Source of the DNA: Dickeya dadantii NCPPB 898
Lineage (GTDB): Bacteria > Pseudomonadota > Gammaproteobacteria > Enterobacterales > Enterobacteriaceae
Length of the DNA stretch: 32,000 bases
Direction: 5' to 3'
Assembly: GCF_000406145.1 (NCBI RefSeq)
Contig: NZ_CM001976.1
Location: forward strand, 2,981,337 to 3,013,336
This document shows, one piece after another, positions 10,320 to 32,000 of this stretch. A program made the translations under genes and the position numbers. Each line of letters opens with the position of its first letter. Positions within the stretch are counted from its first letter, which is position 1. The notes beneath the pieces are model-generated. The model did not search any database. It had not been told where the DNA came from and was given only the letters and a program-made list of their open reading frames with translations.

Positions 10320-11381
10320 TACAAGCCCCTTTAATAAAATCCTTTCGATTACAATCCAATTAAAAATCGAGTGGCAAATAATTTATATTTACCAGGCTCC
10401 ATACCTTAAGAAAGTCATTCCATTGCAAGATGGGCCATCGGCAAGCCATCTCGACCCGGATAGTCGGGAAACAGGGTGAGGTAACAGCACAGAGCTCTTA
10501 CCTGCATGCCATGCAGCAGAGTCTGTATGATGGAACCCGGTATGGGTGAAAGTCGAACCAATCCAGTTGACGCAATGTGCACGCCAACGCGTTATTCCAG
10601 TCCTGGAAATCATTTTATCCTCCATGATCATCAATTCCCGCCATCAATCGGCAGGTGAAGTAACCATGCCACGGTTCAGGCCAAAACCTAAACCGCGGCA
10701 CGGTTATTTATTCCGGCTATTGATTAACAATAATCGGATGCGGCATCCTGCCATCCCCATTATCAGCGCAATCACATTGTCGTAGACCACGCTGATAGCG
10801 GATTGTTTCACATTATAAAAGGAATGGTAAGTGCGTTGTTGTGAATACAAAAAAAAATCTTACAGAATTTTCTACCTCATCACGTGATAACACGCGTGAC
10901 TGTTCATGCAAGAAATACCCTTACGCCAAAAAATTTTTCTTCTGAAATTAGCGTCAGTCTACGATAGAACAGAAAAATGCTCGACGAATTTTGGGAAAAC
11001 CAGTCAAATATTTACGCTTTCAGGATAATTTTCTAACAGAAAAGTGAATCTTATTTCATTCAGATATCTTTTTTGTGTTACATGCTTTGTGATTATTGCC
11101 TGCCATTATGCGCTATGGGTTTCACCTGGTTTTGAAGGATTATCATCCGGAGAGTATCACTTTCCCGCCATTTATCGTCTCCTTTATGGTTGAGTAGGTG
11201 CAACGCAATAAGAATTCCGTCAGATTATCTGCAATCGTCGCCTACGATCTTGTCACGCACAGGTATCGCTCACGTTGCCACAGGCGCTTTCGCCCCTGAT
11301 ATCTGCGATCCGCGAGCCAAAGGAAAAATGGGAGGTTAGGAAGAAACAAAATCAGAGGTGAGATGAATGAAGGAGGAATAG

Positions 11382-11410
11382 ATGCTGTATCCTTACTGCG
11401 GATACAGCAT
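11382..11410 (-). terminator. Perfect 11-bp stem-loop 13 nt downstream of the Arc-like ORF (probable terminator)
   Basis: ATGCTGTATCC (11382-11392) pairs with GGATACAGCAT (11400-11410) around a 7-nt loop. On the - strand it is followed by a pyrimidine/U-rich tract (CUAUUCCUCCUUCAUUCAUCUC...), not a clean U-run. Confidence 0.55.
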
Positions 11411-11423
11411 ACGAGAACCGAAA

Positions 11424-11699
11424 TTACTTCTTCCTGGAAACGCCCTTGCCTTTCAGCAACTGACGAAGTTTTTTGATTTCCTTCGCCGTCAGCGGTTGCT
11501 CCACGATCTCTTCCGTATTCTGGCTATCAACGATCTCTGCCTCATCAGCGTCATGGGCATGGTCTTCGATATCAAAACTTTTCAGCAAACGAGCACTGAC
11601 CTCAGCACTGATCGAGACCTCGTTTTCCAGCGCAGCAGCTTTGATCTTTTCTTTCAGATCCAACGGGATTTTCAGTGACAGACTTGATATCTCGCTCAT
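11424..11699 (-). CDS. Arc/Mnt-type ribbon-helix-helix DNA-binding protein (orphan)
   Basis: 91 aa. The N-terminus SLSLKIPLDLKEKIKAAALENEVSISAEVSARLLKSF is a textbook RHH (beta strand plus helix-turn-helix). It is followed by an acidic linker and a basic tail (KKLRQLLKGKGVSRKK). AAAGGT lies 7 nt upstream of the ATG. A fully overlapping + strand ORF exists (see findings). Confidence 0.65.
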   Translation of the reverse strand: MSEISSLSLKIPLDLKEKIKAAALENEVSISAEVSARLLKSFDIEDHAHDADEAEIVDSQNTEEIVEQPLTAKEIKKLRQLLKGKGVSRKK

Positions 11700-12255
11700 T
11701 TCATTACCTTTATGGCAGGAGAAAATCTCAAGCTATGCCAGTATCCTGACAAAGTCCATACTGAAACAAAAAATTAATATAAATGTCATGAAAACCACAA
11801 AAAAATATAAAAAAATCATACTTTGGATGTGATATATATCTCAGTTTTATCTCACATTTTTCATCCAGGCTTTTATCTTTATCAAATCGACTATCTGCGC
11901 CGGATCGATTTAACATTTCCATCTATCCGTTCCACCGGTAAATAAATAGCCGCTGGAAAAATTATCAATCGAGGTTCGGATTCTTCTGGATCTGTATTCT
12001 TTGACACGTCCGTCAAAAATAAATGAGAACTCCGCGTAATATTATTACAAGGAATGCATAGCTGACCGATGGCGCTCACAACGCTATGCCATGCCGTTAA
12101 CACTTAACGTTGTTAACATTTAACTGGCACATCAACCGGCGGATGCAGATAACGGTTAGCCGCCGCGTTGACGAGAACCAAAGTGTCCCGCCAACGCCCG
12201 CACAGCAGGGGTTGTCTATCGGCGAGCTCATCCAGGCATCGGGCAGGTTAATCGA

Positions 12256-12284
12256 TTGATCGAAAAGTTTTAACAGCATAGAAT
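12256..12284 (+). promoter_or_regulatory. Sigma70-type promoter candidate TTGATC-N17-TAGAAT
   Basis: TTGATC (12256-12261), a 17-nt spacer, then TAGAAT (12279-12284). This lies about 30 nt upstream of the GTG start at 12315. Confidence 0.5.
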
Positions 12285-12314
12285 ACGCGCCCCTGTAACC
12301 ATAAGGAAGTAAAT

Positions 12315-12500
12315 GTGTCACACCATCACCTGTGGGAAATGATCAGAATCCTCTATTTCCTGGGCCTTTCGGTCTCGACGCTATTTACTTTTTTTATGAG
12401 CAAAGATAATTCTCTGACCATGCGCTTTCTGGCATCTATATTAATCGGCGTCACCTGGCCATTAAGTTTTCCCGTGGTCATCGTTTTTTCATTTTTTTAA
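12315..12500 (+). CDS. Hypothetical small two-TM membrane protein (61 aa, GTG start)
   Basis: AAGGAAG (12303-12309) lies 5 nt before GTG 12315. The product MSHHHLWEMIRILYFLGLSVSTLFTFFMSKDNSLTMRFLASILIGVTWPLSFPVVIVFSFF has two clear hydrophobic helices, and a good promoter lies upstream. I do not recognise a homologue. Confidence 0.45.
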   Translation: MSHHHLWEMIRILYFLGLSVSTLFTFFMSKDNSLTMRFLASILIGVTWPLSFPVVIVFSFF

Positions 12501-12565
12501 TTATTATCACTTAATGAATTAGCAGACATGATATTTGCAGCCCGGTTCAACTGCGGGTAGCACGG

Positions 12566-12603
12566 AGAGAAAAGAACACCAGCGCTGATGCGGGTTCGGT
12601 GTT
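12566..12603 (-). terminator. Imperfect terminator-like hairpin downstream of matP
   Basis: On the - strand, AACACC pairs with GGUGUU across a 17-nt partly paired loop, followed by CUUUUCUCUCC. The structure is weak. Confidence 0.35.
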
Positions 12604-12645
12604 AATAATCAGACCGCGTCCTGCCGCCGGCATACATTAATTAGG

Positions 12646-20743: not shown

Positions 20744-20833
20744 GGTGAGGTGTCCGAGTGGCTGAAGGAGCACGCCTGGAAAGTGTGTATACGTGAAAAC
20801 GTATCGAGGGTTCGAATCCCTCCCTCACCGCCA
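20744..20833 (+). tRNA. tRNA-Ser (anticodon GGA), class II with a long variable arm, CCA encoded
   Basis: GGTGAGGTGTCCGAGTGGCTGAAGGAGCACGCCTGGAAAGTGTGTATACGTGAAAACGTATCGAGGGTTCGAATCCCTCCCTCACCGCCA. The acceptor arms GGTGAGG/CCTCACC pair, the anticodon stem is CACGC/GTGTG with loop CTGGAAA, and the T-arm is GAGGG-TTCGAAT-CCCTC. It is nearly identical to E. coli serW/serX as remembered. Confidence 0.97.
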
Positions 20834-20843
20834 GATTAAAAAC

Positions 20844-20880
20844 AAAAACCCCACGACGCAAGTCTGGGGTTTTTGTTTTT
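20844..20880 (+). terminator. Intrinsic terminator after tRNA-Ser
   Basis: AAAAACCCCA...TGGGGTTTTT has an inner GAC-GCAA-GTC hairpin, followed by TTTTTGTTTTT. Confidence 0.85.
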
Positions 20881-21274
20881 AAACCGATGACGGGACGGAC
20901 GAGAGCCATTAAGAGGTCGGTAAGACCCGACAATATTGTGGCAGTTGATGTTCACGAAAAAGATGAACCATCCGTTAAAAATAGGAAATATTCGCATTCC
21001 TTTATATAACGAACTGCCAATCCGCTCTCTTTGACACTACCCTCCTTAGGATACAACGGCTATATTAGCCAGATACTAAACAACTCTTTGATATAAAAAT
21101 AAAACAATCGAACCCCCCTATTAATCACCCAGCTTATATTTGCTTGCGAGACGTAAATAAAAATCGCTTTTTTATTGCCATTAATGTTCACTTAATCTAA
21201 ATAAAATAAATTCATCGTTGTAAGATAATTATACTTTTTTATCTCCATCCTCATTTCTGGCGGAGCATTCCAAC

Positions 21275-22879
21275 ATGACCATTGTGAAAAAATTAGCTAT
21301 CGCAATCAGTATTTTTTCGCTGGCGCTGATTAGCGTAGGCGGTTTTGGTCTTCATTCACTTAGCCAGTCAAAAGATCGTCTGGAATATGTGATGACTAAC
21401 ACATTACCCAGCCTTGATAATCTGGTGAAATCGAATAACGCATTAAACGATGCACGTAGCGATCTGGCGCTTATTTTTCTCACCCGGGAAGATCAGCAAC
21501 GTAATACCTTAAAACGCGCGCTTGATGATTCTCTGAGCAGCGTTGAAAAACTGAATGCTACATATAAAAAGGATCTGGTTTCTGATAGCAAAGATGCGCA
21601 GATGGCCAGTGATAATCTGCAATATCTGAGCGACTTCCGTGCCGCCAAAGATAAGCTGTTTCAGCAGTCCCAAACCGATACTCAGGCCGCGGAGAAAGCC
21701 TTCGCCTCTCAGGGCTATGTCACGCTGGCTCAGGAGAAACTGGTAAAAGGCTTTCAGGCTCAGTACGACTACAACGTAGATCTGGCTGGTGGACTGCAGG
21801 AACAAAATAACACCAGTTTCAAACAGGCTTTCTTCGGGCTGGTCGGGTTGATTGTGGTCGCCCTGCTCGCCGCCGGTACCTTGTCCACGGTGATTATCAG
21901 CTATGTGCGTGCCAGCCTGAACGCCCTGCGTCAGACGCTGATTTCCGTCAGTGAAAATCTGGATTTGACCCTGCAAGCCGACACCAGAAAGAATGATGAA
22001 ATCGGCCAAACCGCCAGCGCCTTTAACAACCTGATTCAGCGATTCGCCACCGTTCTGACCGACGTGCGTTCCGCCAGCGAAAGCGTTTCAACGGCATCCG
22101 GCGAAATCGCCGCCGCCAATGAAGACCTCTCATCCAGAACGGAAGAGCAAGCCTCTTCGCTGGCGCAGACCGCCGCCAGTATGCATGAAATCTCGTCCAC
22201 CATCGAAAGCAACGTTGACAATACTTCCCAAGCCAATCGGCTGGGTCAGCAAGCAAGCGTCGCGGTCCAGCATGGCGATGAAGCGGTGCAGCGTATGATG
22301 CACGCAATGGACGAGATCGCTAACGGGTCCGCAAAAGTAGCCGATATCACCAACCTGATTGAGGGTATCGCCTTCCAGACCAACATTCTGGCGCTGAATG
22401 CCGCCGTGGAAGCCGCCCGGGCGGGTGAACATGGCCGTGGCTTCGCGGTGGTGGCCGGCGAGGTCCGCACGCTGTCCCAGCGCTCCTCATCCGCCGCCAA
22501 AGAGATCAAGACCCTAATCGACAGTGCGATTGCCGCCGTAAAACATGGCGCGCTACAGGCTGATGAAGTCCGCGATGCCATCAGCAACGTGAAAGGCGTG
22601 ATTCAGAACGTATCCAGCCTGGTCAACGAAGTGTCGCTGGCATCGGAAGAACAAAGCCGCGGCATATCCCAGATTAACACCGCCATCAACCAGATGGAGG
22701 CTGTCACACAGCAGAATGCCGCGATGGTGGAACAAGCCTCCTCGGCGGCCGATTCGCTTAACGAGCAGGCCACCAAATTGCGCCAGTCGGTGGAAACCTT
22801 CAAACTAAACGGGAACGCGCATTTTATTGACGCCCATACCATGAACGACATACACCCTTTGCGCCTCGGCAATCACTGA
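21275..22879 (+). CDS. Methyl-accepting chemotaxis protein (no C-terminal pentapeptide)
   Basis: 534 aa. It has TM1 ([20 protein letters not shown]), a periplasmic helical domain, TM2, HAMP and the conserved [40 protein letters not shown]. It ends ...HPLRLGNH*. Confidence 0.92.
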
Positions 22880-22900
22880 TTGACCGGAGGTTACGGTGAA

Positions 22901-22931
22901 AAAAAGGGCTGCTCGCGCAGCCCTTTCGCTT
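22901..22931. terminator. Bidirectional terminator between the convergent MCP and phoH
   Basis: AAAGGGCTGC-TCGC-GCAGCCCTTT (stem 22907-22913 / 22918-22924) is flanked by A7 upstream and TTTCGCTTTT downstream. Confidence 0.85.
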
Positions 22932-22947
22932 TTACGTCAACCAGGAA

Positions 22948-23736
22948 TCAGGAATACGCCACCAGCGTACGTTGACACAGCTCTGAGCGAACACAGTCCT
23001 CCTTGCCAAAGGTGACAATGCCCACCATGCCATCTTCCGTAAATCGCTCCAGCGCGTCGCGCAGACCCGATTTCACGCCGGCTGGCAAGTCACACTGCGT
23101 AATATCGCCATTGACGATCACCGTAACATTCTCGCCCAGACGCGTCAGGAACATCTTCATCTGATTGACGGTAACGTTCTGCGCTTCGTCCAGAATCACC
23201 ACCGCGTTTTCGAACGTCCGCCCGCGCATATAGGCGAATGGAGAGATCTCTACCTTGGCGATTTCCGGCCGCAGGCAGTATTGCAGGAAGGAAGAGCCGA
23301 GCCGACGCTGCAACACGTCATACACCGGCCGAAAATAAGGTGCGAATTTCTCCGCGATGTCGCCCGGCAGGAAGCCGAGATCTTCCTCCGCCTGCAATAC
23401 CGGCCGCGTAACGATAATACGTTCAACCTCTTTATGAAGCAGTGCTTCAGCCGCTTTGGCCGCACTGAGAAACGTTTTGCCACAACCCGCCTCACCGGTG
23501 GCAAAGATTAACTGTTTATTTTCTATTGCAGACAAGTAGTGTTCCTGAGCTGGGGTTCGGGCCTCAATCATTGAGGTGTCACGGCTTTCACGCGCCATAC
23601 CGATAGCTTCAATTCCTCCCAACTGAACCAGAGAAGTGACCGAATCTTCTTCACGCTGACGATGACTGCGCGATTCGCGTCTGATAACACGTTTGGCTTC
23701 ACGACGCGCTTTGATCACTGCTTTTTGTCTTCCCAT
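22948..23736 (-). CDS. phoH: Phosphate-starvation-inducible ATPase PhoH
   Basis: 262 aa. MGRQKAVIKARREAKRV.RR.SRSH.QREE.SVTSLVQ.GG.EAIGMAR.SRDTS...FATGEAGCGKT (Walker A)...VILDEAQN...NGDITQCDLP is nearly colinear with remembered E. coli PhoH. AAGGTG lies 6 nt upstream of the ATG, and an in-frame TAA lies 4 codons upstream. Confidence 0.93.
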   Translation of the reverse strand: MGRQKAVIKARREAKRVIRRESRSHRQREEDSVTSLVQLGGIEAIGMARESRDTSMIEARTPAQEHYLSAIENKQLIFATGEAGCGKTFLSAAKAAEALLHKEVERIIVTRPVLQAEEDLGFLPGDIAEKFAPYFRPVYDVLQRRLGSSFLQYCLRPEIAKVEISPFAYMRGRTFENAVVILDEAQNVTVNQMKMFLTRLGENVTVIVNGDITQCDLPAGVKSGLRDALERFTEDGMVGIVTFGKEDCVRSELCQRTLVAYS

Positions 23737-23842
23737 AGTGGCACCTTACAGTTTGTTTCACTGACCGTACGACCCTGGGTCGACGGTGTTTTGTTCACAA
23801 ATGAGGTTGGCTTCCTTATTAAGCCGTAACACAAGTGGAATG

Positions 23843-23865
23843 AAAAAAGCCGACGCGAAGTTGGC
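23843..23865 (-). terminator. Terminator-like hairpin plus U6 about 110 nt upstream of the phoH start codon
   Basis: The - strand RNA reads GCCAAC-UUCGC-GUCGGC-UUUUUU, with 5 of 6 stem pairs and one A.C mismatch. The same stem is fully paired (with a G.U) on the + strand, but there the A-run precedes it. Confidence 0.35.
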
Positions 23866-23959
23866 GCTGTCGCCTTTACTGGCATGACGGCGCATTCGGC
23901 ATCGGCTTTGAGGCATGGAGCGGGAATCACTCCGAGGACCATATCGCAACAAACAGGGG

Positions 23960-24075
23960 ACAGTGAGAAAATGAAGCGGGAGGGAGAGCCTCCGCATCGA
24001 TGAGGCGGTAAATACGGGCGAATTTGCTGACTATTCCGTCCAGGGAAGGACTCTACCATTCGCGCTCCTCACTGT
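23960..24075. other. Nested inverted-repeat element (candidate structured RNA, three-way-junction-like); strand unresolved
   Basis: The outer 8/8 pair ACAGTGAG (23960-23967) / CTCACTGT (24068-24075) encloses three inner pairs. These are GCGGGAGG (23976-23983) / CCTCCGC (23989-23995, one bulge), GCGAAT (24018-24023) / ATTCGC (24058-24063), and GTCC (24038-24041) / GGAC (24048-24051). Confidence 0.35.
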
Positions 24076-24135
24076 GACAATAACTATTCGGGTGAATAAT
24101 GATTGACCGTATCAGGCACCCGACATCTGAGGATG

Positions 24136-24169
24136 AAATTACCGCCCACAGATGTCATTAAGATGACAG
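24136..24169 (-). promoter_or_regulatory. Pho-box-like promoter candidate (PhoB-type), reading toward phoH
   Basis: The - strand reads CTGTCAT-CTTA-ATGACAT (24169-24152), then 10 bp, then TAATTT (24141-24136). The first 7-mer is a perfect Pho half-site, the second matches 5/7, and the 10-bp distance to the -10 fits Pho-regulon promoters. The same DNA is also the inverted repeat TGTCAT-TAAG-ATGACA. Confidence 0.4.
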
Positions 24170-24267
24170 TGCTATATTTTGCCCCGGCATGGCAAGTATT
24201 TTCACATCACCATAACATAAAACTATGAGCTGGATTTCCTCCGCCGGTCAGCGGAGGAGCGCGAAGG

Positions 24268-24780
24268 TTAGTAATGCTTCTGCCAGTGCAGATATTGATC
24301 GTACTTCCGCAGAGCGCTGCGGTATGTATTCTGCTCTATATCAGGCAAATAATCGCAAATACGCTGCTGAATATTGCCATCCGAGGAGAAGCTTTCCTGC
24401 GGGTAATTCTTCGACAACAGCAATTCATCCAGGCGTCGCAAGCGGATGACATATTCCCGCATCGTGCTATGGCGCACCTCAGTCTGCTCGATCAGATAGT
24501 GCGTGAACGCTTTGATATCGAAATAATTGGCGTGTGTATTGCAGGACACTTCACTGCAAAAACGACATAAGGGGATGAGTTCTTCCTGCACAGATTCCCA
24601 GATAGTGTTGTCAATCAGCCGGTCCATCATGGCTATCGACTTTTTATTGATGAGCTGATCGCGAAATACCAGCGAAACACGATCCAGTTCCTTGGCACAA
24701 TTGGCGCAGTGTGTTTGCCTGTGTTTGAAGTCTTTCAAATAACGGCTCAGAAGCTGCTTCTTCCTGGTTGCTTGAGGCAT
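24268..24780 (-). CDS. fliZ: Flagellar/RpoS-antagonist regulator FliZ
   Basis: 170 aa. LLSRYLKDFKHRQTHCANCAKELDRVSLV...ALCRFC...FDI..F..YL.EQTE....T.REYV.RLRRL...NYR.ALRKY parallels remembered E. coli FliZ. It lies immediately downstream of fliA. Confidence 0.9.
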   Translation of the reverse strand: MPQATRKKQLLSRYLKDFKHRQTHCANCAKELDRVSLVFRDQLINKKSIAMMDRLIDNTIWESVQEELIPLCRFCSEVSCNTHANYFDIKAFTHYLIEQTEVRHSTMREYVIRLRRLDELLLSKNYPQESFSSDGNIQQRICDYLPDIEQNTYRSALRKYDQYLHWQKHY

Positions 24781-24834
24781 GAGTCCATTCCTGACAGTAG
24801 TGTGGGTACAACTACATATCTGCGTGCTCCAAAA

Positions 24835-25557
24835 TTAAACGTCACTCATTAATTTCGCACGCAGACGCTTTATCGCCTGGCTATGCAACTGACTAACGCG
24901 AGACTCTCCGACCTCCAGAACCGCCCCAATCTCCTTTAGGTTCAGTTCTTCCTGATAATAGAGGGTCAACACCATTTTCTCTCGCTCTGGTAGGCTTTCA
25001 ATCGCGTCCATCACTCGCTGGCGTAAATTCACGTCCATCAGTTGATTTAACGGATTGGCTTCCTCATTTCCTTCCAGTAACGCCTCAGCGCTATCCCCAT
25101 GCTCTTCCCGCCATTCATCGTAAGAAAACAACTGGCTATTGTTGGTATCCAGAAGAATCTGGCGATACTCCTCCAGCGAGATATTCAGGGTTTGGGCCAC
25201 TTCCTGTTCGGTAGGTGCCCGGCCGAGTGACTGTTCAGCCTGCTGCATTGCCTGCGCGACTTCCCGGGCGTTACGCCTGACACTGCGTGGCGCCCAGTCC
25301 CGGCTGCGCAGCTCATCCAGCATCGCGCCACGAATACGTTGCACGGCATAGGTGGTGAATGCCGTGCCCTGCAACGAATCATAACGTTCTACGGCACTGA
25401 GCAGCCCGATCCCCCCTGCTTGCAGGAGATCATCGAGCTCGACGCTTGCCGGGAGACGAACCTGTAAGCGTAAGGCTTCATGGCGCACCAGGGGAACATA
25501 GCGCTTCCATAATGAATTTTTATCCATTGTGCCTTCAGCGGTATACAGTTCGCTCAC
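24835..25557 (-). CDS. fliA: Flagellar sigma factor FliA (sigma-28), GTG start
   Basis: 240 aa. ..LYTAEG.MDK.SLW.RYVPLVRHEALRLQVRLPASVELDDLLQAGGIGLL.AVERYD.LQGTAFTTYAVQRIRGAMLDELRSRDW.PRSVRRNAREVAQA...LTLYYQEELNLKEIGAVLEVGESRVSQLHSQAIKRLR.KL is near-identical to E. coli FliA. Confidence 0.97.
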   Translation of the reverse strand: MSELYTAEGTMDKNSLWKRYVPLVRHEALRLQVRLPASVELDDLLQAGGIGLLSAVERYDSLQGTAFTTYAVQRIRGAMLDELRSRDWAPRSVRRNAREVAQAMQQAEQSLGRAPTEQEVAQTLNISLEEYRQILLDTNNSQLFSYDEWREEHGDSAEALLEGNEEANPLNQLMDVNLRQRVMDAIESLPEREKMVLTLYYQEELNLKEIGAVLEVGESRVSQLHSQAIKRLRAKLMSDV

Positions 25558-25888
25558 AGTGATAAATACCTATAAAATTAAGGTGCTCAGTAACATTATG
25601 CGTTTAGCATACTATGGCAATCGGCAGAATAGGTGTAGAAAAAAGGCTTTTTTCAGATATGCAGCCGGATTCCCATTTCTGAATATTGTAGCCGCTATAG
25701 CGTAAGGTGGGTACCTGCCCCAGTAGAGTAAGCCATTTTTTGTGATGTACAGTTATTGACTGATAATGCAAGAAACTATTAATACAATAATAGTCATTGA
25801 TGGCAGAAGGGAAATCAGGCTACTTGCAAACGCCTACGGTGATAAACCGTCATTACCGGATAATCAACATAATAAAATATGATTGAGA

Positions 25889-25918
25889 AATAAGGCCCCA
25901 TCCCACCGGCGCCTTATT
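25889..25918 (-). terminator. Terminator-like hairpin ending the sugar-modification operon
   Basis: AATAAGGC (25889-25896) pairs with GCCTTATT (25911-25918) as a perfect 8-bp stem around a 14-nt loop. On the - strand it is followed by UCUCAAUCAUAUUUU, 19 nt after the stop at 25937. Confidence 0.5.
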
Positions 25919-25936
25919 CCTGTTGCTCAGCCAATT

Positions 25937-27364
25937 TTAGCTATTAAGCTTATTACCATATTTTTCAACAAGATAATCTTTATATTCGGAATAGCGGTTT
26001 TGCGCATCCTTGATCGTCGTCACCACCCAGGCGAATGAGCTTTCTCTGTGATTGACGTCACAGACAAAAGACGCATCAATCCGCGCAATATGGGTTGATT
26101 CTCCCACCCTATCCAGAACGGCAGACAATGCAACCTGATCCAAAAACCAGACAGCATTATTCTTCATCAAATTATTCCATATAAACAAAGCAACTTTTTT
26201 GATGAAACGTCTGGATTCCTCGCCGCCGTTAAGGTAGACAAATCCGGCAATGGCTTTTTCCCAGAACGGTGAACTTTCGCTTTTCGTCAAAGCAATATCC
26301 GCTGACGCGACAGTATGCTCGACAAATTGCCAGCCATTTTTCATCAGGCAATCCGCATCGACAATAATCAGCGGCCCTTTAACGGCAGACAACAGATAAT
26401 TAGCCGCCACAAATCGCCTGCAAGCATAGTGCACATTAATGCCGGGCACATCAGCAATCGATTCAACCGTACAGGAAATATTCAGTTCAGGAAACCGCAT
26501 CCGTTTCGCTTTAATATCATCAGCCGTCACCTCGTCAATATTATAGACGTGAAGGTGTACATTGAATTTTTCACGGTTGGTTTCATAGAGTGAATAAATC
26601 AGATGTACGGCATGCTGATGATAATACTTCACATCACACGCGATAAGTATGGTGGGTTTGTCATTATCATGATCTCTTTTATGTAACCATTGATAATGCT
26701 CATAACTGATATTCTCTTTTTTCGATACCAGTGAACTGAAATCAATATATGAGTCAGGATAACCACCGCTCTTGAATATGGTCGAGACGATCATCAGCAA
26801 AGTCAGCGGGTCTTCACCAATAAGATAGGAGTTGGCGGTCATTCTTTTGACGAGCAACAACGCATACTCATAATCGTCTTCCAGAATACAGGTGAGCAGC
26901 AGAATCTTAAAGATAACAGGGACATCCTGCAGAGCATCCAGGTTGTTCTCGATCAGAGCGACAGCATGTTCTATCGCGCCAATCCGGAACAACAGCTGGA
27001 TAGAGGCAACCAGATATTCAAGATTCGGCGCCAGCTCTAATACATCGCTAAGATAACTGACAACACTGTCAATATATTCGGCCGGCATATGTACCTGCTG
27101 ACCGTTCCATTTTTCATCCAGCGCCAGATTAGACAAGGCAATCGCATTCAGCAGCAATTTCAGTGCGCGATCCTGCGCCTCCGGCAAATTGCTCTGACTG
27201 GCGGCCAGTTTTTTGTTCAGGGTATAAATATCGCAGCTTCTATTGACAATCACATCAACGATAATTTCTTTCGGCAGGTCGCCAATATCGCCAATCATCA
27301 ACTCCCGGCTGAACACATCCCGATAATATTGATGTGTCGATTTTACATGCGTGTAGTCCGCCAT
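25937..27364 (-). CDS. Two-domain glycosyltransferase: N-terminal helical-repeat domain plus C-terminal GT-A (GT8-like, DxD) nucleotide-diphospho-sugar transferase
   Basis: ATG at 27364 follows GAAGG by 6 nt; the ORF-track start at 27370 is a TTG 2 codons upstream. The C-terminal half reads ILIACDVKYYHQHAVHLIYSLYE...FNVHLHVYNID...YACRRFVAANYLL...PLIIVDADCLM (DxD), resembling LgtC/GT8-type enzymes by eye. The N-terminal ~235 aa are amphipathic helices (ALKLLLNAIALSNLAL, YLVASIQLLFRIGAIEHAVALIENNL). The gene is visibly more AT-rich than its neighbours. Confidence 0.7.
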   Translation of the reverse strand: MADYTHVKSTHQYYRDVFSRELMIGDIGDLPKEIIVDVIVNRSCDIYTLNKKLAASQSNLPEAQDRALKLLLNAIALSNLALDEKWNGQQVHMPAEYIDSVVSYLSDVLELAPNLEYLVASIQLLFRIGAIEHAVALIENNLDALQDVPVIFKILLLTCILEDDYEYALLLVKRMTANSYLIGEDPLTLLMIVSTIFKSGGYPDSYIDFSSLVSKKENISYEHYQWLHKRDHDNDKPTILIACDVKYYHQHAVHLIYSLYETNREKFNVHLHVYNIDEVTADDIKAKRMRFPELNISCTVESIADVPGINVHYACRRFVAANYLLSAVKGPLIIVDADCLMKNGWQFVEHTVASADIALTKSESSPFWEKAIAGFVYLNGGEESRRFIKKVALFIWNNLMKNNAVWFLDQVALSAVLDRVGESTHIARIDASFVCDVNHRESSFAWVVTTIKDAQNRYSEYKDYLVEKYGNKLNS

Positions 27365-27410
27365 AAGCAACCTTCAATTCATTGTATTTACTGTTACGGC
27401 AACATGATCA

Positions 27411-27460
27411 GGCATATTACATCATGCCTTTCCGGGTGATCGGCACAACCACCCGGAAAG
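27411..27460. repeat. Two adjacent intergenic hairpins (5-bp and perfect 11-bp stems) between the methyltransferase and transferase genes
   Basis: GGCAT (27411-27415) pairs with ATGCC (27424-27428). CTTTCCGGGTG (27428-27438) pairs with CACCCGGAAAG (27450-27460) around an 11-nt loop. No U-tract follows on the - strand. Confidence 0.7.
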
Positions 27461-27467
27461 TGACTTA

Positions 27468-28553
27468 TCAGTCGGCCGCCGGGATAAAGAACATGATGGT
27501 CTCTGCCCACCCTTCGGTATAGTGGCGCAGATAAATGCGATAATCATTCCGCAGGCTCAGGATATATTCAGGAATCTTCCAGAAGTCGCTCGGATAATGA
27601 TAAACCGCCACCGCCAGTTTCGGGTGATCATCCTGAATATGCTGTTTCATTCCGGTCAGTGCGGCGATTTCCGCCCCTTCCAGATCCAGCTTGATAAAGG
27701 TAACGGGCTCATTGACTACGCTATCCAGCGTCGCCACTTCAATTTTTACGTTCCCTTCCTCCGAAATATGGCTGGCGGAACCATCGCCCGAGGAAAAGCT
27801 CAGCGTCGTATTCCGGTCGAACAATCCAAGCGGGTGATAGGTAACGCCATGCAGATGCTGCATATTCTTTTTAGCCAACACCAGCGTATCGCTGCCCGGC
27901 TCGAAGAAATGGATGCCGCCATAACCAGGGCAACGTTTGGCGAATTCCAGGCTGGTAAAGCCATCAAACCCGCCGCCATCGACAAAAACCTCGCCATCGG
28001 AAAACGTAACGAACGGCTCGAAATACTGCCTGTCGACACAAAAATCGTATTTATCGATCGCGGTCAGGTTGGCTTCCAGGCGAAAACGCAAAATGTCGTC
28101 AAATACCTGGCGGGACTCATCATCGACCAGCAGCCCGCGGATCCACTCGAATTTTGCGGTGTTGGTCGCATACTCTTTACGCATCTCGGTAATGCATTCA
28201 AGCTGGGGCACCGTGCCGTGGCTCAAATCGGCAAACGCGAAATAGTCCATCACCTCGTTGACGCCTGCCGCCTTCAGTTTTTCCACGCCGGTTCTGGGGC
28301 GGGAATTGGTCACTGCAGATACCACCATGCAGTCCTTCTCGATTTGATTCAGGCGCAGCACCGGCTTGCCCAACCATGTCGTCAGGTCGGTGTATTCATC
28401 AATAAAACCGTCGACCGGCGCGACGTTGGCGACGGCCTCCGCGTACTGGTTAACGCCCAGTACGTAGTGTTTAACACCATCGGCACGGGTAAACCGCTCA
28501 AAAAAGTCAGCTGTTGCGCTGTTCGCTGCCGCAGGCTTACTGGCTGTATTCAT
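27468..28553 (-). CDS. FkbM-family SAM-dependent methyltransferase with an N-terminal extension of about 150 aa
   Basis: VFVDGGGFDGFTSLEFAK (SAM-binding glycine motif) and TFIKLDLEGAEIAAL are hallmark FkbM motifs. I start at ATG 28553 (MNTASKP...), 8 nt after GGAGA; the ORF-track start at 28610 adds 19 codons. The N-terminal part (HYVLGVNQYAEAV...GKPVLRLNQI..DCMVVSAV) looks like a small Rossmann-like domain. Confidence 0.8.
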   Translation of the reverse strand: MNTASKPAAANSATADFFERFTRADGVKHYVLGVNQYAEAVANVAPVDGFIDEYTDLTTWLGKPVLRLNQIEKDCMVVSAVTNSRPRTGVEKLKAAGVNEVMDYFAFADLSHGTVPQLECITEMRKEYATNTAKFEWIRGLLVDDESRQVFDDILRFRLEANLTAIDKYDFCVDRQYFEPFVTFSDGEVFVDGGGFDGFTSLEFAKRCPGYGGIHFFEPGSDTLVLAKKNMQHLHGVTYHPLGLFDRNTTLSFSSGDGSASHISEEGNVKIEVATLDSVVNEPVTFIKLDLEGAEIAALTGMKQHIQDDHPKLAVAVYHYPSDFWKIPEYILSLRNDYRIYLRHYTEGWAETIMFFIPAAD

Positions 28554-28744
28554 TCGTCTTCTCTCCAATACCTTCTGATATCGCAATGAGTCATCACCCT
28601 CATCATGCACCGCTCCGACAGGCTGTTGTCGGCAAACGCGGCTTTACCAGTAAAAGTTTAGTGACAGTAACACCGGGTGATCTCTAAACCGATACAGTAC
28701 AAAATCAGCAACACATTGATTTATATATTTATCAAATCACGGAT

Positions 28745-29878
28745 TTACTCCGTAATCCGAACCTTCTCTCCTCTATGCGCGCTGGCTGCGGCGGCCTGGA
28801 GATAACGAATACCGCGCATCGCAACATCGGCGCCAAACACATACTCGCACGCGCCTTCTTTCAGATAAGAAGCAATGTCCTCGTAGTAATTGGCGAACGC
28901 TTCAATAAATCCGGCGGGATGGCCGGCTTTAAAACGGTTGTATCGAGGCTGGGATGCGATCAGGTTATCCGGGTGCGTTCTGTCGATCACAGAAGAGACA
29001 CCGTTGATATTGCTGAGTTTCAAATGCTCAGGGTCCATCTGTAGCCACTCTGCCGATCCTTTGCTGCCATAAACCCGGATACGCAACCCATTGCGATAAC
29101 CCAGCGCCGCCTTGGTGTACCAGTAATTGCACACGACCTGATTGGTGTAACCGGAAATGCAGTGAACCGTATCCACCACATCCGGGATCTCGCCGAACCG
29201 ATGGTGCACCGCATATACATCCTGCGCCAGCTCACCAATGATGTAATCCACCATCTGGTGGGCATGCACGCCCAGATCCAGCGACACGGTGGGGATCACG
29301 CCGTCATGCTGGCGCCAGTCCTGCGGACGCGGCACCGCCCCGCTTTTCACATGGCGCAAAAAGCCTTCCTGAGGCATTTCAACCATAACCTGCCTGATCT
29401 GGCCCAGCTCACCATCGGCGATCCGCTGTTTCAGCTCCCTGACCATTGGGTAACCGGAATAATTGAAGGTGACCAGCAGAGTCCCGTTCATTTTTTCCAG
29501 TGCATGCTGAATCTCGGCCACTTCCTCCACGCTGGTCGCCAGCGATTTCTCACAAATCACCGGCAACTGATGCTCAATGCAGGCAATCACAATCTCTTTA
29601 TGCGTCGGCGTCGGCGTTAGAATGACGACCGCATCCAGTTTACTGGCTTCCGCGTGCAAAAAACCGGTCAAATCGCGGTACACGCGGTCTTCATGAATTC
29701 CCCAACTGGCGGCGGTTTGCTGATTGATGTCATCATGGCGGCTGAAAAATCCCGATACCAGTTCGAACTGGCCATCCATCTGCGAAGCAATCTTATGCGT
29801 TTCACCGATTGCCGAATTAATGCCTCCGCCGATGAACCCGATTTTTAATGCCCCACCGTTGTTTGTTATGCTTTTCAT
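28745..29878 (-). CDS. Gfo/Idh/MocA-family NAD(P)-dependent sugar oxidoreductase
   Basis: 377 aa. The N-terminal Rossmann motif is LKIGFIGGGINSAIGETH, followed by ...PVICEKSLATSVEEVAEI (EKP-like motif). The start ATG overlaps the ATP-grasp stop (ATGA at 29875-29878). Confidence 0.85.
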   Translation of the reverse strand: MKSITNNGGALKIGFIGGGINSAIGETHKIASQMDGQFELVSGFFSRHDDINQQTAASWGIHEDRVYRDLTGFLHAEASKLDAVVILTPTPTHKEIVIACIEHQLPVICEKSLATSVEEVAEIQHALEKMNGTLLVTFNYSGYPMVRELKQRIADGELGQIRQVMVEMPQEGFLRHVKSGAVPRPQDWRQHDGVIPTVSLDLGVHAHQMVDYIIGELAQDVYAVHHRFGEIPDVVDTVHCISGYTNQVVCNYWYTKAALGYRNGLRIRVYGSKGSAEWLQMDPEHLKLSNINGVSSVIDRTHPDNLIASQPRYNRFKAGHPAGFIEAFANYYEDIASYLKEGACEYVFGADVAMRGIRYLQAAAASAHRGEKVRITE

Positions 29879-31062
29879 TGCTCTTTCCCCAGAAAAGAGT
29901 GGCTCACCACCAGATGGTGTTTCAGGTTTCCGGTATTTTTTAACAGATGCGCTTTATCATTGAAGGTCATAAAGACGACGGCAGCCCGATCCCCTGGCGC
30001 CGGATTCAGCACTTCACCACTTTTTTTCAGCACGACACTTTCCAGTAACTCACCGGGCAACTGGTGATAACGCAGTGCGTTAAAGATCGTTTTTTCAGCC
30101 ACCGATACGGTATGTCTGGCTACATAATGGCGAGCCGCCGGCCGCTTACTGGCGAATGTCGACGGCAGCGACAGGAAAGGCGCGACAAAATATTCCGCAT
30201 AAGGGATATCGGTGGAATAACGGATCAGCTGGCAATATAAATCACCCGGACAGCGCCGGGTCAGTTCAATCAGCCAAAAATCATCGCCATTGGCGATAAA
30301 TTGCGTATGCAGCAAGCCATCACATAGCTTCAGGTCGGCGACAATACTGTTGATGCAGTCACTGACGGCATTTTTCAGCGTTTCACTCATTTGATGAGCC
30401 ACACAGCTGCTATTCACCTGATAAGGGTAGACCGTGCAATATTCATCAACAAAGAACTCACAAACAATCTCGCCGTTACGAATAAACGCCGAATGGCTGT
30501 GCAGCGAGCCCTGCTTGAATTCTTCTATCACCACCTGACCGCTTACCGATGCCGATGCGGCCGACTGGTAAGCCGGCAGAATATCCTGTTCGCGCTGAAC
30601 CTGAGTAATACCGCGGCCACTGTAGGCATCAACCGGCTTGACCAGAATCGGATACGACAGTTGCCCCACCGATCCAATATCACGTACCGCTTTAGGAATG
30701 GGCAGTCCCTTACGCTGTGCATAAGCACGAAACGCATCCTTTTTCAGCAGGATCGCCGTTGTTTCAACCGAATCGAAACCGGGCATACCCAGCGATTGCG
30801 CAACCCAGGCGCCGGTTTCGTAAGAGACATCCGTCACGCCCGGCAAAATAGCCTTAATATTTTCCTTTCTGACAATGCCGAGAATGGCCTCTTTGTCCGA
30901 ATAATCTTCGACAATCGACCGGGTTGCCCGGATATGACCAGGGTCACCGGGTTTGCCGCTGCACACACCAATCGCAACGCCCTGTTCCAGGCACGCTTCC
31001 AGCAGAGGCAGCGCAGAAAAACCCGCATCAAGCATTAAGGCATCTATAGTCGACATATCCAT
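29875..31062 (-). CDS. ATP-grasp family ligase (carbamoyl-phosphate-synthase-like fold)
   Basis: 395 aa. KKDAFRAYAQRKGLPIPKAV...LSYPILVKPVDAYSGRGITQV...VVIEEFKQG.LHSHSAFIRNGEI...DFWLIELTRRCPGD is the typical ATP-grasp motif order. It is translationally coupled to the downstream oxidoreductase. The start could be ATG 31062 or ATG 31056. Confidence 0.8.
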   Translation of the reverse strand: MDMSTIDALMLDAGFSALPLLEACLEQGVAIGVCSGKPGDPGHIRATRSIVEDYSDKEAILGIVRKENIKAILPGVTDVSYETGAWVAQSLGMPGFDSVETTAILLKKDAFRAYAQRKGLPIPKAVRDIGSVGQLSYPILVKPVDAYSGRGITQVQREQDILPAYQSAASASVSGQVVIEEFKQGSLHSHSAFIRNGEIVCEFFVDEYCTVYPYQVNSSCVAHQMSETLKNAVSDCINSIVADLKLCDGLLHTQFIANGDDFWLIELTRRCPGDLYCQLIRYSTDIPYAEYFVAPFLSLPSTFASKRPAARHYVARHTVSVAEKTIFNALRYHQLPGELLESVVLKKSGEVLNPAPGDRAAVVFMTFNDKAHLLKNTGNLKHHLVVSHSFLGKEQ

Positions 31063-31083
31063 TCTCTGTTACCAATATTTTCT

Positions 31084-31138
31084 CAGGCTTCCCGCTACAA
31101 CGGGGAGCGCGCACGCCCCTTAGGGCGAAGCAAGCCTG
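31084..31138. repeat. GC-rich composite palindrome (two hairpins inside an outer stem) in the 80-bp gap between the aminotransferase and ATP-grasp genes
   Basis: The outer pairs are CAGGCTT (31084-31090) / AAGCCTG (31132-31138), or alternatively GCTTC (31087-31091) / GAAGC (31127-31131). The inner pairs are CCCG (31091-31094) / CGGG (31101-31104) and CGCCC (31114-31118) / GGGCG (31123-31127). Confidence 0.65.
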
Positions 31139-31142
31139 TCAC

Positions 31143-32000
31143 TTAACGCCCGTTTTCACTCAACGTGCGCCCAATAATCTCGATGATGCGATCCTGATCG
31201 CCGCTTTCCAGACCTGGATAAATGGGCAGACACAGCACAGCGTTGGCGATGTCGGTCGCCACCGGTAAATTCTCGGCGCCCGCGCTGCCGAGACCACGGT
31301 ACATCGGAAAACTGCTGATCAGCGGGTAGAAATACCGGCGTGACATGATGCCGTGCTCTTTCAGAGCGTCATAAAGTTTCTCGCGCACATCGAACGAGTA
31401 ATCATTAACAAAAAGCGGGAAGTAGGCATAATTCCAGTCGATGGAATCCGGCACGCTCAGCGTCCTGATGCTATTAATCTGAGCCAACCCATCACGGTAG
31501 TAGCGATAAATACGTTTTCTGTCTTCCAGCGCCTGATCGATATAATTCAGTTGCAACAGGCCAAACGCCGCCTGCACTTCGTTCATTTTGCCGTTAATAC
31601 CGGGAGCGACCACAGTGGTTTCATCCGCAAAGCCGAAGTTTTTCAGATAATCGATCCGTTTCTTCATTTTTGCGTCGGGGCAAATAATGGCGCCGCCTTC
31701 AATGGTGTTGAACACCTTGGTCGCGTGGAAACTCAGAATTGAGAGATCGCCATAATTCAGAATGCTGTCGCCATCCTTTTTCACGCCAAAAGAGTGTGCG
31801 GCGTCATAAATCACCTTCAGGCCGTAAACATCCGCAATATTCTGGATTCGATCGACATCGCAAGGAATACCATAACAGTGGACAGGCAGAATAGCGGACG
31901 TGAGCGGCGTAATCGCTTCTTCAATCTTTTTAGGATCCAGATTACAGGTAACCGGATCGATATCGACAAAAACTGGCTTGAGGTTATTCCACAATAACGA
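31143..32000 (-). CDS. DegT/DnrJ/EryC1/StrS-family PLP-dependent sugar aminotransferase; N-terminus beyond the window
   Basis: The frame is open to base 32000, and the ORF-track 'M' at 31994 is an internal TTG. Motifs seen are KPVFVDIDP.T.N.D, LPVH.YG..CD...I..IA, and DLSILSFHATKVFNTIEGGAI (the SFHxxK PLP-lysine). The C-terminus is LCLPIYPGLESGDQDRIIEII. Confidence 0.88.
   Translation of the reverse strand, partial: SLLWNNLKPVFVDIDPVTCNLDPKKIEEAITPLTSAILPVHCYGIPCDVDRIQNIADVYGLKVIYDAAHSFGVKKDGDSILNYGDLSILSFHATKVFNTIEGGAIICPDAKMKKRIDYLKNFGFADETTVVAPGINGKMNEVQAAFGLLQLNYIDQALEDRKRIYRYYRDGLAQINSIRTLSVPDSIDWNYAYFPLFVNDYSFDVREKLYDALKEHGIMSRRYFYPLISSFPMYRGLGSAGAENLPVATDIANAVLCLPIYPGLESGDQDRIIEIIGRTLSENGR

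Follow-up and report, generated by a model that had tools for sequence, protein, structure and literature searches.

The closest described counterpart of the locus studied here is the cluster Dda3937_03424-03419 of Dickeya dadantii 3937, six genes between fliA and fliC that have been linked to flagellin glycosylation and are annotated, in order, as an OGT/GT41-like transferase, an aminotransferase, a carbamoyl-phosphate-synthase (CPSase)-like protein, an oxidoreductase, a methyltransferase and a nucleotide-diphospho-sugar transferase (PMC6637903). We analysed a stretch of 32,000 nucleotides (nt) from D. dadantii NCPPB 898 (contig NZ_CM001976.1, positions 2,981,337 to 3,013,336), hereafter the window, in which five consecutive minus-strand genes occupy positions 25937-32000, upstream of fliA-fliZ. 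It is very likely that this block represents five of the six genes of the D. dadantii fliC-fliA flagellin O-glycosylation island, with multiple promoters and with a chemistry following the steps proposed below. The locus is the Dda3937_03424-03419 cluster and thus already published, and another D. dadantii strain carrying it adds nothing new.

In strain 3937, FliC bears a glycan of approximately 3.3 kDa, and FliC masses of 32170 Da in the wild type, 31034 Da in mutant A3422 and 28890 Da in mutant A4277 have been measured (PMC6637903). A4277 was built in 03424, the GT41-type gene, which left flagellin unmodified; this mutant without the flagellin glycan macerates celery less, and flagellin glycosylation aids the multiplication of D. 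dadantii in plants (PMC6637903). A3422, which lost about 1.1 kDa, is presumably the mutant in 03419, the orthologue of the gene for a 475-aa protein in the window. In transposon insertion sequencing (Tn-seq) in chicory, the ATP-grasp gene 03422 was the sole significant gene of the cluster (log2 fold change -4.85, q 0.02), and the oxidoreductase gene 03421, the only one placed in one operon with it, had a value of -0.71 (PMC6637903). An earlier note on the window, made from its letters alone, held that the glycan structure and the enzymology were not yet solved, and this stands, as we found no mention of the locus tags Dda3937_03424-03419 in later papers in the literature searched.

Within the genus, flagellin glycosylation islands were present in 44 of 44 sampled Dickeya strains (De Maayer & Cowan 2016, PMC4875605). 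According to the same survey, the GT41 enzymes mostly carry a methyltransferase domain, DegT and FkbM genes also sit between fliC and fliA, and one FkbM gene sets strains S1 and 2B12 apart (PMC4875605). The survey is based on gene content: the terms ATP-grasp and carbamoyl-phosphate-synthase-like occur in it zero times, and the fold of the 475-aa protein is not described. The same arrangement is found in a D. zeae genome paper, in which the aminotransferase gene is annotated as vioA (PMC7575072).

Outside Dickeya, the locus can be compared with Pseudomonas syringae pv. tabaci and with Burkholderia cenocepacia. In the former, Yamamoto et al. reportedly found in 2011 that 4-amino-4,6-dideoxyglucose is the product of a VioA-type aminotransferase and undergoes N-acylation and O-methylation; the acylation is said to be carried out by VioB/VioR/VioS-type enzymes and the glycan to be rhamnose-based, with Fgt1, Fgt2 and VioT as the transferases. 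Dickeya has an ATP-grasp ligase and GT41 and TPR-GT-A transferases instead (TPR, tetratricopeptide repeat). In B. cenocepacia, FgtA, a TPR/GT41-type enzyme encoded beside fliC, reportedly attaches N-acylated viosamine at many flagellin sites (work attributed to Khodai-Kalaki et al., 2015); that system differs in using a single sugar, with no ATP-grasp/oxidoreductase cassette at the locus. The viosamine island of P. syringae pv. tabaci is an example of O-glycosylated flagellin in a plant pathogen in which glycosylation is needed for full virulence (PMC3927599).

In the window, the open reading frame (ORF) map and domain searches bore out five same-strand genes of the families named in the earlier note before fliA. 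These encode a DegT/DnrJ/EryC1 pyridoxal phosphate (PLP) aminotransferase (31143..32000, minus strand; the last 284 of 375 codons, with the 5' end beyond the window; orthologue of Dda3937_03423), an ATP-grasp protein (29875..31056, minus strand; 393 aa as in homologues, the ORF being extendable to 31062; orthologue of Dda3937_03422), a Gfo/Idh/MocA NAD(P)-dependent oxidoreductase (28745..29878, minus strand; 377 aa; orthologue of Dda3937_03421), an FkbM-family S-adenosylmethionine-dependent methyltransferase with an extra N-terminal domain (27468..28553, minus strand; 361 aa as in homologues, the ORF being extendable to 28610; orthologue of Dda3937_03420) and a predicted flagellin-glycan glycosyltransferase of 475 aa (25937..27364, minus strand; orthologue of Dda3937_03419). 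Of the profile hidden Markov model (HMM) searches proposed in the note, those for DegT_DnrJ_EryC1, GFO_IDH_MocA and FkbM gave matches above cutoff; the one for ATP-grasp gave concordant matches, every Pfam score being under its gathering cutoff. GC content is 0.42-0.44 across the 475-aa gene versus 0.52-0.57 in most of the flanking housekeeping DNA. The island is bounded downstream by fliA, encoding sigma-28 (24835..25557, minus strand; NF005413, 5e-106), followed by fliZ (24268..24780, minus strand; TIGR03823, 1.7e-85) and phoH, and the identities of FliA, FliZ and PhoH are backed by Pfam/NCBIfam.

Positions 20851-32000 of the window align at 99.2-99.5% with six D. dadantii assemblies (L010-L015), in all of which the gene order is fliD (divergent), fliC, the GT41 gene, aminotransferase, ATP-grasp, oxidoreductase, FkbM, the 475-aa gene, fliA, fliZ and phoH. 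Past the right end of the window, the sixth gene encodes in all six a protein of 1148-1150 aa with methyltransferase, TPR and GT41 domains, and fliC, on the same strand as the island, a product of 280-281 aa. The note had predicted that a further TPR/OGT-like transferase would come next and that fliC would follow it in the same orientation, as is seen in these near-identical assemblies, and the Tn-seq paper it mentioned is Royet et al. 2018 (PMC6637903), with six genes in the same order and with the same annotations. Species, position, gene number and gene order thus all agree with strain 3937. P0068, a D. dadantii protein present on 33 contigs, is a 100% match to the ATP-grasp protein, and DNA identity between the window and a D. 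dadantii genome carrying the 3937-type transposase is about 99.3%, with approximately 0.5-0.8% nucleotide differences. Transposase genes lie between fliC and the GT41 gene in strain 3937 (PMC6637903). At the same spot, an IS200-type Y1 transposase gene (L011 4478-4936) was found in one of the six D. dadantii assemblies, in agreement with the duplicated transposases reported there for strain 3937. By analogy with strain 3937, for which it was demonstrated by sodium dodecyl sulfate-polyacrylamide gel electrophoresis and matrix-assisted laser desorption/ionization (MALDI), these genes would glycosylate flagellin also in the window strain.

The five genes had been described in the note as an operon tightly packed with 4-nt overlaps. 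One such overlap exists, between the ATP-grasp and oxidoreductase genes; the remaining spacers are 86, 191 and 103 nt, with 379 nt from the last gene to fliA. Directly after the stop codon of the methyltransferase gene lies a strong hairpin without a U-run (27421..27464, minus strand; minimum free energy (MFE) -25.3 kcal/mol, z -4.2, 0 of 200 shuffles as stable), and just after that of the transferase gene a terminator-like hairpin followed by UUUCUC (25886..25921, minus strand; MFE -20.5 kcal/mol, z -3.4, 0 of 200 shuffles), which stands between the island and the fliA promoter region. The consensus promoter/terminator scan called neither hairpin, though folding made both significant. Sigma-70-like sites were not enriched (8 versus 11.6 expected from shuffles), canonical sigma-28 sites (TAAA-N14-16-GCCGATAA) were absent from the window, and where near-matches to sigma-28 sites were noticed by eye, in the gaps on either side of the methyltransferase gene, their spacing was wrong. 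In strain 3937 the cluster genes are stated not to be expressed as an operon, 03422 and 03421 alone being grouped (PMC6637903, citing the promoter mapping of Jiang 2016). The single overlap, the gap lengths, the hairpins and the published mapping do not support a five-gene operon, and the genes are probably transcribed from several promoters, as judged from the sequence and by analogy with strain 3937.

The 475-aa protein had no match in Pfam or NCBIfam, even at E<=10, and the profile of its family had none among the PDB sequences at E<=10; a homologue 52% identical to it matches PF03407 (Nucleotid_trans) with 26.4 bits (cutoff 22). The AlphaFold2 model, built from a 52-sequence alignment, has a predicted local distance difference test (pLDDT) score of 93 and, together with Foldseek, suggests a TPR-like all-helical N-domain (residues 1-215; nt 26720-27364, minus strand) and a retaining-type GT-A alpha/beta domain (residues 224-470; nt 25955-26695, minus strand). 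A DxD motif, D336-A337-D338 (26351..26359, minus strand), has each residue kept in at least 90% of the 52 homologues, and TPR-containing relatives have DID and DID/DVL aligned with it. In Foldseek searches against PDB the C-domain matched GT8 3tzt, LARGE1, the GT6 enzymes GTA/GTB, alpha-3-Gal transferases, glycogenin, Skp1 galactosyltransferase and UGGT (E 6e-7 to 5e-5, target-normalised template modelling (TM) score 0.5-0.63), and the top 50 matches were retaining-type GT-A enzymes. The N-domain alone matched TPR proteins only, namely MamA, designed TPRs, the OGT TPR domain, Tom71 and PilF. The protein thus shares its fold and a conserved DxD motif with the retaining GT-A enzymes of GT8, GT6 and GT24; it differs in having only 9-15% sequence identity to them, no Pfam GT8 match and an added TPR-like N-domain. 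By sequence it is not a GT8 member, its modelled fold only resembling those of GT8, GT6 and GT24, so that the earlier call of a GT-A DxD transferase is right at the level of fold and motif and wrong as a sequence-family match, and the Glyco_transf_8 match that the note expected is absent from Pfam at E<=10.

A search with the family profile against 1.84 billion cluster representatives gave 957 relatives at E<=1e-10. The remote relatives inspected carry canonical TPR repeats ahead of the same catalytic domain, often with a C-terminal FkbM or other methyltransferase. Judged from the model, the 475-aa protein would work like a TPR-guided, protein-directed retaining GT-A transferase. In a Caballeronia locus (L005), a domain of this family is fused to FkbM beside a GT41/TPR gene, a transferase of the type of B. 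cenocepacia FgtA, and sugar-synthesis genes are lacking. In Pantoea brenneri (L009 6991-9474), a short FkbM gene and a 471-aa transferase homologue lie beside the yjbEFGH exopolysaccharide genes and metH with no flagellar gene near, from which it follows that an FkbM/transferase pair can move independently of the flagellar locus. As a separate observation, the gene drawn as 'fkbM' beside fliA in the maps of Fig. 6 of the D. zeae genome paper (PMC7575072; D. zeae/D. oryzae) belongs to this TPR-GT-A family and is not a methyltransferase. The product of L018 10001-11419 is 72% identical to the 475-aa protein of the window.

Comparison of loci indicated three alternative cassettes, one or another of which fills the slot between the aminotransferase and 475-aa genes. 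In Pectobacterium, Lelliottia and Cronobacter the order is GT41, DegT, WbqC, two glycoside hydrolase-like genes, GNAT, methyltransferase and a 47x-aa transferase; in D. oryzae it is GT41, DegT, a PglD-like acyltransferase, acyl carrier protein (ACP), two short-chain dehydrogenases/reductases, a split transketolase, an AMP-binding enzyme, LuxE, LuxC and the transferase; and in D. dadantii and Enterobacter cloacae it is GT41, DegT, ATP-grasp, oxidoreductase, FkbM and the transferase. The constant parts are the GT41 and DegT genes, which adjoin in every enterobacterial locus examined, and the transferase. From its gene content the D. oryzae-type cassette is plainly an N-acylation system, and one version of the slot being such a system backs the ATP-grasp enzyme as N-acylase of the amino sugar. 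The suggestion in the note that acylation proceeds through an ATP-dependent ligase therefore gains support from the swappable-slot pattern.

In the ATP-grasp protein, four Pfam matches scored 23.1, 23.0, 18.9 and 16.9 (gathering cutoffs 27, 24, 27 and 19.8, respectively), and 27 NCBIfam ATP-grasp-type models as well as cyanophycin synthetase, CPSase and PurT from PDB cover the same region. Its weak matches include ATP-grasp_4, Dala_Dala_lig_C, PurT, cyanophycin synthetase, CPSase and L-amino-acid ligase, and close homologues carry precomputed PF13535 and PF07478. The oxidoreductase has the Rossmann N-domain and C-terminal alpha/beta domain of its family, with PF01408 (8.6e-18) and PF02894 (4.8e-19) above cutoff and also PF22725, and its closest solved structures are the unnamed Gfo/Idh/MocA proteins 3v5n, 3dty and 7d5m. 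The methyltransferase matches PF05050 (6.3e-11, 43.1 bits, cutoff 22.7), TIGR01444 (3.9e-17, 63 bits, cutoff 37.7) and the FkbM structure 2py6 (3.5e-21). The order of ATP-grasp gene and then oxidoreductase gene recurs in Enterobacter (oxidoreductase 57% identical) and in L016, a distant flagellar locus (52%). In L016 the whole trio is present with 43%, 52% and 43% identity over full length to the ATP-grasp protein, oxidoreductase and FkbM methyltransferase, in the company of FdtA, a radical-SAM enzyme, GT2 transferases and a DegT of another kind (31% identical). In gene content, the trio thus has the character of a portable unit. In two D. dadantii assemblies the oxidoreductase orthologue (L014 11179-12311 and L015 11179-12311) is broken by a frameshift after about residue 77 into an 86-aa and a 271-281-aa product. 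The gene seems to have lost its function naturally there, and the frameshifts fit the weak Tn-seq effect of Dda3937_03421.

We propose, tentatively and with less than even confidence in the two parts taken together, that the trio is an uncharacterised portable cassette adding a new N-acyl (and methyl) decoration to the amino-dideoxyhexoses of flagellin through an acyl-phosphate ligase, with C4 (DesI-like) or C3 (FdtA-linked) sugars and in place of acyl-CoA, acyl-ACP or formyl-tetrahydrofolate transferases, and that the 475-aa protein founds a large Pfam-less family of TPR-guided, protein-directed retaining GT-A transferases.

For D. dadantii itself, four steps can be suggested. The aminotransferase would, rather probably, turn dTDP-4-keto-6-deoxy-glucose, supplied by housekeeping RmlA/B or RffH/G, into dTDP-4-amino-4,6-dideoxyglucose (viosamine). 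In the second step, for which we see an even chance, the ATP-grasp enzyme would N-acylate the amine via an acyl phosphate, and the translationally coupled oxidoreductase and the FkbM enzyme would tailor the acyl group or the sugar. With slightly better than even prospects, the methyltransferase/TPR/GT41 enzyme would then act in the cytoplasm, linking the tailored sugar to FliC at several Ser/Thr residues. Finally, and here the balance is again level, the 475-aa enzyme would dock on flagellin via its TPR-like domain and add a second sugar with retention, probably from a UDP-hexose. The assignment of the amino sugar to the GT41 enzyme and of the hexose to the 475-aa enzyme is favoured since the transferase family occurs without sugar-synthesis genes in Caballeronia and Pantoea, since the fold neighbours of the 475-aa enzyme use UDP-hexoses, since the GT41 and DegT genes are always adjacent, and since the 1136 Da lost in A3422 correspond to 7.01 hexoses, leaving 306 Da per site.

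Several points weigh against this reading of the pathway. All four steps are inferences from sequences and models. The loss of 1136 Da also approximates 6 x 187 Da (6.07), as for an N-acetyl- or N-formyl-O-methyl-aminodideoxyhexose, in which case the distal sugar would be the amino sugar, and for a protein of 30 kDa MALDI is accurate only to within tens of daltons. The Foldseek E values behind the assignment of the N-domain to TPR are 0.05-0.3, with a target-normalised TM score of 0.6 for the best match, MamA. The ATP-grasp matches are all under curated cutoffs, and among them PurT, a formate ligase, scores highest, so that the acyl group could be a simple formyl. The oxidoreductase is not needed in planta, and some strains have a broken copy of its gene. 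The linkage of FkbM goes two ways, as the copy in the window is orthologous to that of the trio, and FkbM domains elsewhere form fusions with the transferase family. A deduction of the glycan from the published masses was dropped, as it has several near-integer solutions, and no structure is claimed.

The strongest alternative is that the two sugars are reversed, the GT41 enzyme attaching a large or composite first unit and the 475-aa GT-A enzyme adding the tailored amino-dideoxyhexose (about 187-189 Da, at six sites) distally. We regard this as possible and rather unlikely. The near-integer quotient of 1136 Da and 187.19 (6.07) is in its favour, as are the methyltransferase gene adjoining the 475-aa gene in the window and the repeated fusion of FkbM domains to the 475-aa transferase family. 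Against these stand the occurrence of the family with neither an aminotransferase gene nor any other gene of sugar synthesis nearby, the UDP-Glc, UDP-Gal and UDP-Xyl enzymes that are its fold neighbours, and the invariant pairing of the GT41 and aminotransferase genes; in addition, dedicated genes for making a first unit of 357 Da per site would be lacking.

As for the origin of the amino sugar preferred here for the GT41 enzyme, Gfo/Idh/MocA and DegT enzymes are a classic pairing, and in a WbpB/WbpE- or GnnA/GnnB-like route the former would oxidise the nucleotide sugar and the latter transaminate it to a 3-amino sugar. The oxidoreductase of the window has a weak match to the archaeal UDP-GlcNAc 3-dehydrogenase model (63.8 bits, cutoff 450) that would agree with such a route. 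The aminotransferase (PF01041, DegT_DnrJ_EryC1, 2.9e-77) is, however, far nearer to the C4 enzyme DesI: its closest solved structure is DesI 2po3 (5e-64), followed by perosamine synthetase (6e-47), with WbpE (3e-39) and NtdA far behind. Its best NCBIfam match is the DesI model TIGR04427 (216 bits against a cutoff of 650, for the 284-residue fragment in the window), and the PLP-binding lysine in SFHATK aligns with the corresponding DesI motif. The enzyme is DesI/VioA-like and probably of the C4 type. Its orthologues are 63-73% identical in Pectobacterium and Lelliottia loci without a Gfo/Idh/MocA gene and are found also in oxidoreductase-free loci of Cronobacter and D. oryzae, and because of this the oxidoreductase is probably not the source of the keto substrate, contrary to what the earlier note had supposed. 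The oxidoreductase is moreover coupled to the ATP-grasp gene by the 4-nt overlap, accompanies a different aminotransferase in L016, and is parted by Tn-seq from the ATP-grasp gene (-0.71 and -4.85). We therefore consider the 3-amino route improbable.

Slightly more doubtful still is that the two transferases modify different Ser/Thr sites of FliC independently, with no disaccharide formed. Both have TPR-type protein-binding domains and the published data consist of intact masses only, which would allow it, but the GT41 mutant loses all modification: the 28890 Da measured for A4277 fits, within MALDI error, the 28,833 Da calculated for unmodified D. dadantii FliC including the initiator Met. 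This implies that the 475-aa enzyme depends on the GT41 enzyme, as in the sequential scheme preferred here, unless the cassette insertion was polar; according to the authors there is no operon. That the cluster serves an O-antigen, capsule or enterobacterial common antigen and stands beside fliA by chance is scarcely credible, since, despite the Pantoea brenneri pair beside exopolysaccharide genes and the frequency of DegT, FkbM and GT-A enzymes in polysaccharide loci, no Wzx, Wzy, Wzz, initiating phosphotransferase or ABC exporter accompanies it, the fliC-fliA position is fixed in Dickeya, Pectobacterium, Lelliottia, Cronobacter and Enterobacter, orthologous mutants shift the flagellin mass (PMC6637903), and the O-antigen or capsule machinery that the earlier note had named as speaking against its own proposal was found in none of about 15 related loci.

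Compared with L007, another assembly labelled D. dadantii, the aminotransferase, ATP-grasp protein and oxidoreductase are 98-99% identical, whereas the transferase is 66% identical and the in-cluster methyltransferase missing. D. undicola 2B12 (L001) resembles L007, with a transferase about 67% identical and no in-cluster FkbM. A metagenome-derived Dickeya contig (L002) shares the methyltransferase (97%) and transferase (94%) alleles of the window, and its aminotransferase, as that of L007, is 98-99% identical. The mosaic breakpoint lies 3' of the oxidoreductase gene (window 25937-28553 versus L007 9915-11431 and L001 9924-11437), and the flanking genes are 90-99% identical. It looks as if the methyltransferase-plus-transferase segment has been allelically replaced within and between close Dickeya.

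An FkbM-like gene (275-282 aa, weak PF05050) lies between phoH and a chemoreceptor gene in L007 (14713-15561, minus strand) and L001 (14673-15500, minus strand). It is absent from the window, which has a 68-nt gap at 22880-22947, and from L002 and L010-L015. In the sample of about ten genomes it was thus found only in the two without an in-cluster FkbM, and it may be a functional substitute for the in-cluster enzyme. Its being a relocated copy of the in-cluster gene was ruled out, as the two have no direct similarity (E 0.27 or worse).

Elsewhere in the window, an Rfam match to the Yersinia small RNA Ysr251 (22953-23146, plus strand; 137 bits, gathering cutoff 100) lies antisense to the phoH 3' end. 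A tRNA-Ser gene with anticodon GGA (20744-20833, plus strand) lies in a low-GC spacer between rpiB-like and chemoreceptor genes, and identity to related Dickeya genomes shifts at about this gene. Between matP and a chemoreceptor gene lies a further low-GC stretch (0.41-0.46) of about 2.3 kb (10320-12645), in which no ORF exceeds 119 aa; it contains a 91-aa ORF rich in charged residues (11424-11699, minus strand).

What this analysis adds to the published locus is a conserved swappable trio cassette, deeply divergent transferase alleles among close strains, and concrete enzymes for assay. In other phytopathogens, glycosylation shields the flagellin epitope from plant immune recognition. For Dickeya, the fixed bookend genes, the swappable centre and the divergent transferase alleles together suggest that the flagellar glycan is under surface-variation pressure.

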